Shown piece after piece: positions 52,237-54,392 of a DNA stretch of 64,000 bases; the stretch's first letter is position 1, and each line of letters opens with the position of its first letter. Location of the stretch: the NCBI RefSeq assembly GCF_003790525.1, contig NZ_CP033635.1. One strand, given 5' to 3'. A model generated the notes under the pieces. That model worked only from the letters and a program-made list of their open reading frames with translations, was not told the origin of the DNA and ran no database searches. This DNA is from Escherichia coli. Its GTDB lineage: Bacteria > Pseudomonadota > Gammaproteobacteria > Enterobacterales > Enterobacteriaceae. A program made the translations under genes and the position numbers.

Positions 52237-54324
52237 TCAGAACTGATAGTTCAGCGACATCCAGTAATTTCTCTCAGGTATCACATAACCCGTTGTCGAT
52301 GCCCCCGTCTGGAAGTAATCACCCGCATAAAGCGTACCACTGCCGGCACGATACAGACTTACGTCACTGTAATCCTTGTTAAGCACATTATTCACCGCTG
52401 CATTCAGCATCAGTGCATCCGTCACTTTCCACGACATGCCCGCATCCAGTACCGTCCAGGCTTTCAGATATTCACCTTTCTCATCATACACTTTCTTCTG
52501 TACAGCTGAGAGTGACGAATAATTCTGGGTGAAACGTGGCGTTTTCCCGCGATAACGGGCACCCAGCCATGATGTCACCTCTTCAGTAATCTGCCAGTTC
52601 AGTTTCGCATTCACCATATGCTCAGGGGTGTAACTCAGTGGTGCACCTTTATTATCCCCATCCCGTTGTTCACTCTGCGTCCAGGTATAATTCAGAGACA
52701 GAGTCACATCCTCTGACAACAGAGGCAGTGTGCCGGCAAATTCCACGCCCTGAGTCCTAGCCTTTCCGCTGTTTGTGTAGCTGCGGGTATTATCATCAAT
52801 GGAATAAGATACGATCTTGTTGGAGAATTCTGTCATAAAGCCCGTGATATTGGCGTTCAGACCGGCATGATTATCGTAATACACGCCCGCTTCATAACTG
52901 ACACTCTCCTCCGGCTTCAGGTCCGGGTTACCGAGAAGATTCGTACGCCCCTGACCGGACACACCGCTGATCCCCTTATGTAACTGCCCCATGCTGGGCG
53001 CCTTATATCCCGTGGTCACCCCACCTTTCAGCGTCCACGCATCAGTCACATCCCAGACCATATATGCCCGGGGACTGAAGTGTCCTCCGAACACCTCATA
53101 GCGTTCATAGCGGCTACCCGCAGTCAGTGCAAATGCATCCGTGATATACCACTCATCCTCAACAAATGCCGACCAGCTTTTCTGACGGAAGGTTTCACCA
53201 GTACTGGCGAGAACAACCCCGTCTTTCATGGAGGAGTTCTGATACTCACCACCGACGGTAACCTTGTGTGATTCCCCCAGAGGTGCAAACAGTAATGAGC
53301 TCAGGATAAGATTCGACTCCTTAAGCTCCCTCGGCTGGCCGGCAAGCCCCCATTTATCACGCTGCAGTACGCTACGTACAAGCTGACGGCCTTTATTTTC
53401 CGTCTCATTCCAGTTCAGGGATGACTTCCAGGCTCCGAAGGTGAATGTATGATCATAGCCTGCTGAAATTTTATTACGCTCATAGCGCAGGGTGCGATCA
53501 TAACCGCCCGTCAGACTGCCCAGCTGGCCATCTCGGTTATCATAACGCTGCCGGGCGATATCCATATCAATCCAGAGTACATCCTTGTCCGTCGCTTTCC
53601 AGTCAAGACGACCACCTGCATTATAATTCTGTGATTCCGTGGGATAAGGGATACGCGTAGCTGAGGTGTCGCTCAGTGATGTGACCGATGAGCCCTGACG
53701 CTGCTGTGTGCTGCCACGTACCTGAAGGCTGAGTGAATCATCCACAAGGGGACCGCTGCTCCAGAAATTAAACTGGCTGCTGTTCCCCCATTTGTTACTT
53801 TCCTGCAGGTTCAGCCCGGCATTAACCGAAGAGCGCCATTTGTCTGCATTCTTTTTGGTGATGATATTCACCACGCCCCCCATGGCATCAGAGCCGTACA
53901 GAGTGGACATGGGGCCCCTGATAATCTCAATACGTTCGATGGCGGCCAGAGGTGGCATAAAACCCGTATTCATGGCAGCATAACCGTTTGGGGTTACGTC
54001 ACTGCTCCCGCCCTGACGGACACCATCGATCAGTATCAGCGTATAACTGGCAGGCATTCCGCGGATGCTGATTTCCAGCCCACCTGTTTTACCCGTACCG
54101 CTTTCAACATCCACCCCCTCTACGGATCTCAGTGCCTCCCCCAGATCATGATACTGGCTGGATCGCAAATCCTCCTGGCTGATCACTGAAACACTCGCAG
54201 CTGCACTGGTTAATTTTTTTTCATAGCCAGACGCCGTGACTACCATCACATCTTCCGCAGCCATACTGCTGACTGAAAACCCGAGACAAGGGATGGCTAC
54301 TGAAGCCAGAGTGGTTACTCGCAT
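52237..54324 (-). CDS. iha: TonB-dependent outer-membrane siderophore receptor/adhesin, Iha/IrgA-like
   Basis: 695 aa, signal peptide, TonB-box region, plug and beta-barrel ending in aromatic residue (YQF); sequence recognised as Iha-like. Confidence 0.8.
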   Translation of the reverse strand: MRVTTLASVAIPCLGFSVSSMAAEDVMVVTASGYEKKLTSAAASVSVISQEDLRSSQYHDLGEALRSVEGVDVESGTGKTGGLEISIRGMPASYTLILIDGVRQGGSSDVTPNGYAAMNTGFMPPLAAIERIEIIRGPMSTLYGSDAMGGVVNIITKKNADKWRSSVNAGLNLQESNKWGNSSQFNFWSSGPLVDDSLSLQVRGSTQQRQGSSVTSLSDTSATRIPYPTESQNYNAGGRLDWKATDKDVLWIDMDIARQRYDNRDGQLGSLTGGYDRTLRYERNKISAGYDHTFTFGAWKSSLNWNETENKGRQLVRSVLQRDKWGLAGQPRELKESNLILSSLLFAPLGESHKVTVGGEYQNSSMKDGVVLASTGETFRQKSWSAFVEDEWYITDAFALTAGSRYERYEVFGGHFSPRAYMVWDVTDAWTLKGGVTTGYKAPSMGQLHKGISGVSGQGRTNLLGNPDLKPEESVSYEAGVYYDNHAGLNANITGFMTEFSNKIVSYSIDDNTRSYTNSGKARTQGVEFAGTLPLLSEDVTLSLNYTWTQSEQRDGDNKGAPLSYTPEHMVNAKLNWQITEEVTSWLGARYRGKTPRFTQNYSSLSAVQKKVYDEKGEYLKAWTVLDAGMSWKVTDALMLNAAVNNVLNKDYSDVSLYRAGSGTLYAGDYFQTGASTTGYVIPERNYWMSLNYQF

Positions 54325-54373
54325 ATCTTCTCTCCGATTATATTAATCAGAGAGAAGATAAACAAACGCAAGA

Positions 54374-54392
54374 GATAATGAGAATGATTTGC
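54374..54392. promoter_or_regulatory. Fur-box-like site upstream of iha
   Basis: GATAATGAGAATGATTTGC matches about 14 of 19 positions of GATAATGATAATCATTATC, 50-68 bp upstream of the start. Confidence 0.5.

Follow-up and report, generated by a model that had tools for sequence, protein, structure and literature searches.

An intact, divergent iha allele with a conserved Fur-like site, in a putative remnant of an ICEEc2-like element of Escherichia coli

What is a complete gene for an outer-membrane receptor doing amid pseudogenes and insertion sequence (IS) debris, and by which kind of mobile DNA was it brought there? This question is raised by a reading frame of 695 amino acids found at 52237-54324, on the minus strand, in a 64,000-nt stretch of Escherichia coli DNA (contig NZ_CP033635.1) that is called the window throughout this text. 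A previous description, based on the sequence alone and referred to below as the sequence-only reading, had assigned the product to the Iha receptors. The analysis presented here indicates that the product of the gene is very probably a TonB-dependent receptor of the outer membrane that is under Fur repression, takes up ferric catecholate siderophores and is also an adherence factor, and that the gene is carried in a decayed element related to ICEEc2, an integrative and conjugative element (ICE), in which a copy of ISEc31 was inserted later, downstream of the gene.

The receptor gene and its control region

The coding sequence, which corresponds to a divergent allele of iha that we call 'clade B', has an ATG start and no internal stop in the six-frame list of open reading frames (ORFs), and its 2088 bp are open throughout. 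A GGAG Shine-Dalgarno sequence (54332-54335, minus strand) could be read 7 nt ahead of the ATG. In the translation, residues 1-23 (MRVTTLASVAIPCLGFSVSSMA^AE; 54256-54324, minus strand) constitute a predicted Sec signal peptide, in which cleavage after ...SSMA was judged by eye and not computed. They are followed at residues 25-31 (54232-54252, minus strand) by the motif DVMVVTA, kept in all alleles, which from general knowledge of TonB-dependent transporters we take to be the TonB box. Pfam detected two domains, Plug (PF07715; E = 2.5e-27) in residues 39-151 and the TonB-dependent receptor barrel (PF00593; E = 6.2e-65) in residues 221-647, and the protein ends in ...NYQF, with a terminal aromatic F. 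The open frame and both domains thus bear out the intact 695-residue TonB-dependent receptor of the sequence-only reading.

The assignment of this receptor to Iha was given by the NCBIfam equivalog NF010012, which it matched with 1538.7 bits where the cut-off is 924, residues 1-695 being aligned to model positions 1-696. The close likeness to Iha that had been proposed is confirmed by this score, although the allele is a deep-branching one, with about 90% amino acid and 86% nucleotide identity to those of O157 and uropathogenic E. coli (UPEC). When positions 52100-54600 were compared by megablast with 5,426 complete E. coli genomes, 100% identical DNA was found in many chromosomes and all the matches listed were annotated as 'iha: bifunctional siderophore receptor/adhesin Iha'; the RefSeq product of this gene in strains SFE8 and SMS-3-5 is WP_001266790.1. 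The gene is, then, an intact iha, for IrgA-homologue adhesin, and since identical sequences, that of SMS-3-5 included, already carry the name Iha in RefSeq, the finding was already known and its identification is routine annotation. The gene is well known from pathogenic E. coli and is catalogued among virulence and fitness factors.

The solved structures nearest by sequence were Cir, PirA, FepA and PfeA, Cir being the best match in the PDB (E = 7e-79). An AlphaFold model of the protein, built on 49 homologues (pLDDT 73.8, pTM 0.77), has 22 barrel strands, and its closest solved folds were again Cir (TM scores 0.79/0.86), PirA, PfeA and FepA, all of which are catecholate receptors. Considered together, the gene passes every test for Iha that can be made on a sequence: it matches the family model, its product has the full architecture of a TonB-dependent transporter (signal peptide, TonB box, plug, 22-strand barrel and terminal F) and its identity to the studied O157:H7 and UPEC prototype is high, though below the identity among published subtypes.

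A Fur-box-like site, GATAATGAGAATGATTTGC, is located at 54374-54392, 50-68 nt upstream of the iha ATG, and was found at the same position in six aligned alleles. It agrees with the Fur consensus GATAATGATAATCATTATC at 15 of 19 positions on the plus strand and at 14 of 19 in the orientation of the gene, the latter in accordance with the approximately 14 matches reported for it in the sequence-only reading. No other site of the 64-kb window reached at least 15 matches, and whole-window dinucleotide shuffles contained a mean of 0.2 such sites. In five of the six alleles, the 19-mer most similar to the Fur consensus stands at the homologous position, with scores of 15 in the window, 14 in strain AR_0089, 13 in the O157, UPEC and LAA alleles and 12 in the pO113 type, in which it ties with a neighbouring 19-mer. 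According to a review (PMC6313751, citing Rashid et al. 2006), iron represses prototype iha through Fur and Iha is a catecholate siderophore receptor; both statements are also found in PMC6920203. With 15 against 13 matches, the window site is closer to the consensus than that of the O157 allele, and by this count it is nearer to it than the site of the allele with reported repression. Conserved among alleles and statistically unusual, the 19-mer is credible as an operator.

The alleles all have in common a block that extends from the ATG up to about -130, the sequences farther upstream being unrelated. Within this block, manual reading suggests a weak candidate for a sigma-70 promoter (54399-54427, minus strand), made up of TTGTAA (54422-54427), a 17-nt spacer and TAAAAA (54399-54404); it ends 6 nt upstream of the Fur-like site, and the promoter block is conserved among alleles. 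If this weak assignment is right, a Fur operator would lie over the region in which iha transcription starts. A promoter-like site was also noticed on the plus strand at 54401-54430, overlapping the control region of iha. At the other end of the gene, a stem-loop without a U-tract (52165-52195, minus strand) is present in all alleles about 40 nt past the stop codon, and five of its predicted pairs stay paired through changes on both sides. The consensus promoter/terminator scan gave no intrinsic terminator, and neither the leader nor the 3' region of iha had a match in Rfam, which returned IS-associated small RNA (sRNA) families elsewhere.

Divergence, distribution and selection

Six iha alleles were aligned with their flanks to obtain distances. 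The nearest relative of the window allele was the ICE-borne one of AR_0089, with 94.8% nucleotide identity, followed by those of O157:H7 (86.5%), UPEC 83972 (86.4%), the LAA context (86.0%) and the pO113-type plasmid (85.1%). The three classical types (EDL933, LAA and pO113) share 91.5-94.1% among themselves, in agreement with the inter-subtype identities of Colello et al. 2019 (PMC6920203). At the protein level, the window Iha is about 90% identical to those of O157:H7, UPEC 83972 and the pO113 type, and 68 differences separate it from the O157 protein, among them an indel of one residue within the signal peptide.

The subtypes of iha published so far are EDL933, LAA/LPA and pO113 (Colello et al. 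2019, PMC6920203), and membership of a subtype calls for about 98-99% nucleotide identity within it and for a match to its own or the general primers. The window allele falls within none of them, as its identity to all three is 85.1-86.5%. The subtype-specific primers of that study (PMC6920203) had zero mismatches to the LAA and pO113 representatives used here, and therefore the assignment of both to their subtypes is validated. Every primer of the set, the 'general' pair included, mismatches the window allele, with 1-5 mismatches each. The widely used IHA-f and IHA-r primers match the O157 allele exactly, and both mismatch the window allele at the 3' terminal base. Typing based on EDL933, LAA and pO113, or on classical primers for the polymerase chain reaction, may thus miss the lineage to which the window iha belongs.

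In the collection of 5,426 genomes, 1,615 matching iha records were found, 59 of them with at least 99% identity to the window allele, 20 with 90-95% and 1,536 with 80-90%. All of the first 59 match at 99.8% or more, and in the 30 of them that were listed the match takes in the promoter and the 3' flank. The carriers include SMS-3-5, a strain of phylogroup F and sequence type ST354 (PMC11537424), and many isolates from chickens, humans and pigs.

Compared with all classical alleles, the window iha had a ratio of nonsynonymous to synonymous substitution rates (dN/dS) of 0.07-0.08, at dS values of 0.6-0.8, the value being about 0.6 for the O157 and UPEC type. These values denote long-term, strong purifying selection on an old iha lineage and not a decaying copy, with the reservation that such a ratio cannot exclude a very recent loss of function.

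When the substitutions were placed on the topology of the model, they were fewest in the predicted extracellular loops, with 5.3%, as against 11.5% for strands and 19.5% for periplasmic turns, a contrast between loops and strands that is approximate (Fisher p = 0.027), the structure model being of moderate quality. Within residues 164-695 (52237-53835), the predicted loops L1, L3, L5, L8, L9 and L10 carry no substitutions between the divergent and the classical alleles. Surface-exposed outer-membrane proteins usually show the opposite pattern, with loops that are more variable. Conservation of the modelled surface loops fits a functional constraint imposed by ligand binding or adhesion, and would bear on any consideration of Iha for use as a vaccine antigen.

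An ICE as the vehicle, and the rival explanations

In AR_0089, iha has on one side the gene for a conjugative transfer ATPase, with a small ORF, and on the other TIGR03757 and TIGR03756 genes that are intact. The order ATPase-iha-TIGR03757 was found in 24 genomes, AR_0089 and 23 others, mostly from poultry. The AR_0089 element encodes an integrase, TraI, a type IVb pilus with a PilV shufflon, TraG, mating-pair genes and TraD, as well as the conjugative ATPase, topoisomerase III, a DnaB helicase of the SPI-7 type (DnaB-PI), ParB and ParA; it is an ICE of the PAGI-2/pKLC102/SPI-7 family, of the type described in E. coli as ICEEc2.

Two segments of the window correspond to this element. The first is the iha module (52164-54438, minus strand), 93.4% identical over 2275 bp that comprise the promoter/Fur region, the coding sequence and the 3' hairpin; homology with AR_0089 stops 114 bp upstream of the ATG, and the module shared by the other alleles begins and ends at much the same points, about -130 and about +90. 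The second (47927-50122, minus strand), 95.0% identical to the AR_0089 ICE, contains a TIGR03757 pseudogene (49647-50042, minus strand), a TIGR03756 pseudogene (48676-49650, minus strand), both of them conjugative-element genes with internal stops, and the start of the next ICE gene. Because the window is collinear with the AR_0089 element over 54438-52164 and 50122-47927, it holds a remnant of about 6.5 kb of an ICEEc2-like ICE, with iha as its surviving cargo. Synteny with conjugation genes is found on the 3' side alone, the ICE flank being missing on the 5' side, and with only the pseudogenised TIGR03757 and TIGR03756 and one fragment retained, this is not a complete, transferable ICE. Some genomes (GF60, TUM1886, CM2 and TUM9803) carry both the window-type allele in the decayed island and the ICE-borne allele in an intact-looking ICE, and have two clade B copies of iha in a single chromosome.

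Searches of a limited literature collection for iha with ICE, pKLC102 or ICEEc2 returned no description of ICE-borne iha or of this lineage, which is tentatively considered undescribed. It is possible, although we would not yet count on it, that the window and AR_0089 alleles form a fourth, undescribed lineage of iha, whose native vehicle would be an ICEEc2-like conjugation module of poultry-associated, phylogroup-F-type E. coli. If so, virulence genotyping would underestimate how common it is, given the primer mismatches and the identity of about 86% to the references. The ICE-borne iha could also be the source of the modules found in pathogenicity islands (PAIs) and on plasmids. To PAIs and plasmids as vehicles of iha, a conjugative element can be added.

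Four other explanations have to be set against this interpretation. That the protein belongs to another TonB-dependent family (CirA, IrgA-like, IreA, CfrA or FepA) and merely resembles Iha could be argued from the catecholate-receptor fold that they have in common, from its significant matches to all of those models and from its divergence of about 10% from prototype Iha. However, the NCBIfam scores of the rival models were far under their cut-offs, with 484 bits against 1200 for CfrA, 473 against 927 for PRK13483, 458 against 942 for PRK13513, 399 against 1197 for IreA, 331 against 745 for CirA and 268 against 493 for FepA, and all six assignments were ruled out; a closest homologue in a different family, the outcome named in the sequence-only reading as speaking against it, was not found. 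The Iha model NF010012, on the contrary, was passed from end to end, identical sequences are named Iha in RefSeq, and the promoter, the Fur site and the 3' hairpin are in common with classical iha, so that membership of another family is extremely improbable. The nearest relatives outside E. coli were Citrobacter receptors, with 73% identity. As regards the Fur-like 19-mer, it might be a chance match in AT-rich DNA, and the window allele not regulated by iron: the intergenic DNA is 67-70% AT, and sites with 14 of 19 matches appeared in 5.5% of local shuffles. Nevertheless, at least 15 matches were reached in just 0.74% of shuffles of the 312-bp intergenic region and in 0.32% of those of its proximal 150 bp, the site is the single best one of the 64 kb, its position is kept across alleles though the sequence farther upstream is unrelated, and the prototype is Fur-repressed according to PMC6313751; a chance match is left with a small probability.

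The two remaining explanations concern the state of the gene and the way in which it was mobilized. As iha is found amid pseudogenes and IS debris, and the adjacent ICE genes have internal stops, it could be a relic that decays like its neighbours, intact by chance and with its function lost. Against this, the frame of 2088 bp is open, promoter and 3' flank are preserved in the 30 records listed, and the dN/dS of 0.07-0.08 extends over a dS of 0.6-0.8, which makes a relic highly improbable. The IS elements on both sides, pointed out in the sequence-only reading, could likewise suggest that iha is the cargo of an IS-bounded composite transposon. Their presence is literally true, but the elements are of unrelated types, the 5' one is not immediately adjacent, and both are incidental to iha. 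On the 3' side, ISEc31 (50670-51927, plus strand; 1258 bp, IS3 family) has TG...CA ends, is 100% identical to copies elsewhere and sits 309 bp beyond the iha stop codon between 3-bp GTA target duplications of its own (50667-50669 and 51928-51930); its site is unoccupied in SMS-3-5, and it is a late simple insertion. On the 5' side, the nearest intact IS is represented by an IS630-family transposase gene (56078-57109, minus strand) 1.75 kb upstream, with a hypothetical ORF of 90-94 amino acids and transposase fragments in between. In addition, SFE8 and SMS-3-5 carry other IS elements at other points of the 3' spacer, that of SFE8 being a different IS3-family element about 280 bp from the position of ISEc31, many genomes with the same allele have no IS between iha and TIGR03757, and the conserved neighbours are ICE genes. 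A composite transposon has hardly any probability left, and was rejected, as there is no pair of the same IS with an outer target duplication.

Some observations weigh against the interpretation of the gene as a Fur-repressed iha. The Fur consensus is itself AT-rich and the site lies within DNA of 67-70% AT; the consensus promoter scan reported no promoter on the iha strand, the TTGTAA/TAAAAA pair included; the structure model is only of moderate confidence, with a poorly modelled plug; and what is proposed for Fur binding, transcription start, ligand and adhesion is carried over from an allele with 68 differing residues. The identity of the gene, its intactness, its domain architecture, the purifying selection on it and the conservation of the Fur-like site are directly supported by the data presented above.

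On this basis, a mechanism can be proposed for the window Iha as a Fur-repressed receptor and adhesin, in which Fur binding, catecholate transport and adhesion are taken over from published work on prototype alleles, for which the catecholate receptor role and adherence are known (PMC6313751 and PMC6920203). When iron is plentiful, Fe2+-Fur would occupy the operator at 54374-54392, immediately downstream of the probable -10 element, and transcription would be blocked, whereas iron scarcity would allow iha to be transcribed. The precursor would be exported through the Sec pathway with removal of the signal peptide (residues 1-23), and the BAM machinery would assemble the protein in the outer membrane, where it would form a barrel of 22 strands with the N-terminal plug closing it. 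Ferric ligands of the enterobactin type would be bound at the extracellular face and imported with energy from TonB-ExbBD through the TonB box DVMVVTA, and the same surface-exposed protein would promote adherence to epithelial cells.

The island and its relation to known systems

The small hypothetical ORF between iha and the IS630-family gene (54649-54921, plus strand; WP_000370415.1) is divergent from iha, has no family match and lies within AT-rich DNA that replaces the ICE flank. On the other side of the gene, the spacer of about 870 bp between iha and TIGR03757 is occupied by ISEc31 at 50670 in the window, by the IS3-family element near 50390 in SFE8 and by an IS66 near 50103-50114 in SMS-3-5, and has no IS in other carriers; the stretch 50103-50670 may be a hot spot for insertion, or no more than neutral DNA. 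Two of the Rfam matches mentioned above belong to isrC (50738-50860, plus strand; 150 bits), inside the orfA region of ISEc31, and isrN (62242-62384, minus strand; 138 bits), in IS or island DNA. Both are families of Hfq-binding sRNAs of Salmonella, and the matches probably reflect IS-derived sequence in those families and not dedicated sRNA genes. Another match, to ES036 (CssrF), was located in the core genome between nadE and cho (16530-16572, plus strand), with 44.3 bits where the gathering score is 37.6.

The island starts with a gene for a tyrosine recombinase (29386-30603) beside ynjA (region 29229-30603). No tRNA was detected in the window by ARAGORN, nor was the 3'-end repeat of pheV when up to 3 mismatches were allowed, and an attachment site at a tRNA or at pheV was rejected for this island. 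In SMS-3-5, the same decayed mosaic is found at tRNA-Phe (pheV), behind an integrase that is only 84.9% identical; the mosaic is thus shared at two loci, beside ynjA in the window and at pheV in SMS-3-5. Between the window and SFE8, identity is 97.9% in the core flank (window 1-34188) and 99.96% in the island part (32175-64000), which suggests that the island, or its distal part, passed from one lineage to another after the divergence of the backbone.

Amid the pseudogenes and IS debris there is also an intact ORF of 659 amino acids (42542-44521, minus strand), annotated in RefSeq as a PhoX family protein and without a match in the NCBIfam scan. Judging by position in the SFE8 annotation, the segment 40081-42445 would hold what is left of an ABC transporter, namely part of a solute-binding protein, an ATPase with a frameshift and part of an iron ABC permease. 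They could be relics of the native ynjBCD beside ynjA or of other iron-uptake cargo.

Among known systems, the closest solved structure is that of CirA, the colicin I receptor, which has in common with the window Iha the fold of the catecholate-type TonB-dependent transporters, but with an identity of about 30% it is a paralogue and not the same protein. The Iha proteins of O157:H7, encoded in the OI-43/48 tellurite-resistance island, and of the CFT073-type pheV islands of UPEC (WP_001223350.1 and WP_001223344.1) belong to the same family model and have the same architecture, with 696 residues instead of 695. They share with the window allele the promoter/Fur block of about 130 bp and the 3' hairpin, and hardly differ from it in the predicted extracellular loops. 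The contexts are different: the comparison of flanks with the O157 and UPEC loci, proposed in the sequence-only reading and carried out here, revealed ter genes for O157 and, for 83972, a gene cluster of sialate metabolism together with an IS3-family element, as against ICE remnants in the window. For the LAA subtype the context is btuB-sulfatase-porin and for pO113 it is the saa/subAB plasmid, and the representatives recovered here fit these descriptions (PMC6920203). The nearest relative of all is the ICE-borne Iha of AR_0089 (WP_024210527.1), which has the same 3' neighbours, TIGR03757 and TIGR03756. The AR_0089 element extends for about 78 kb from pheV and looks complete, whereas the window keeps just about 6.5 kb of such an element, with its ICE genes pseudogenised.

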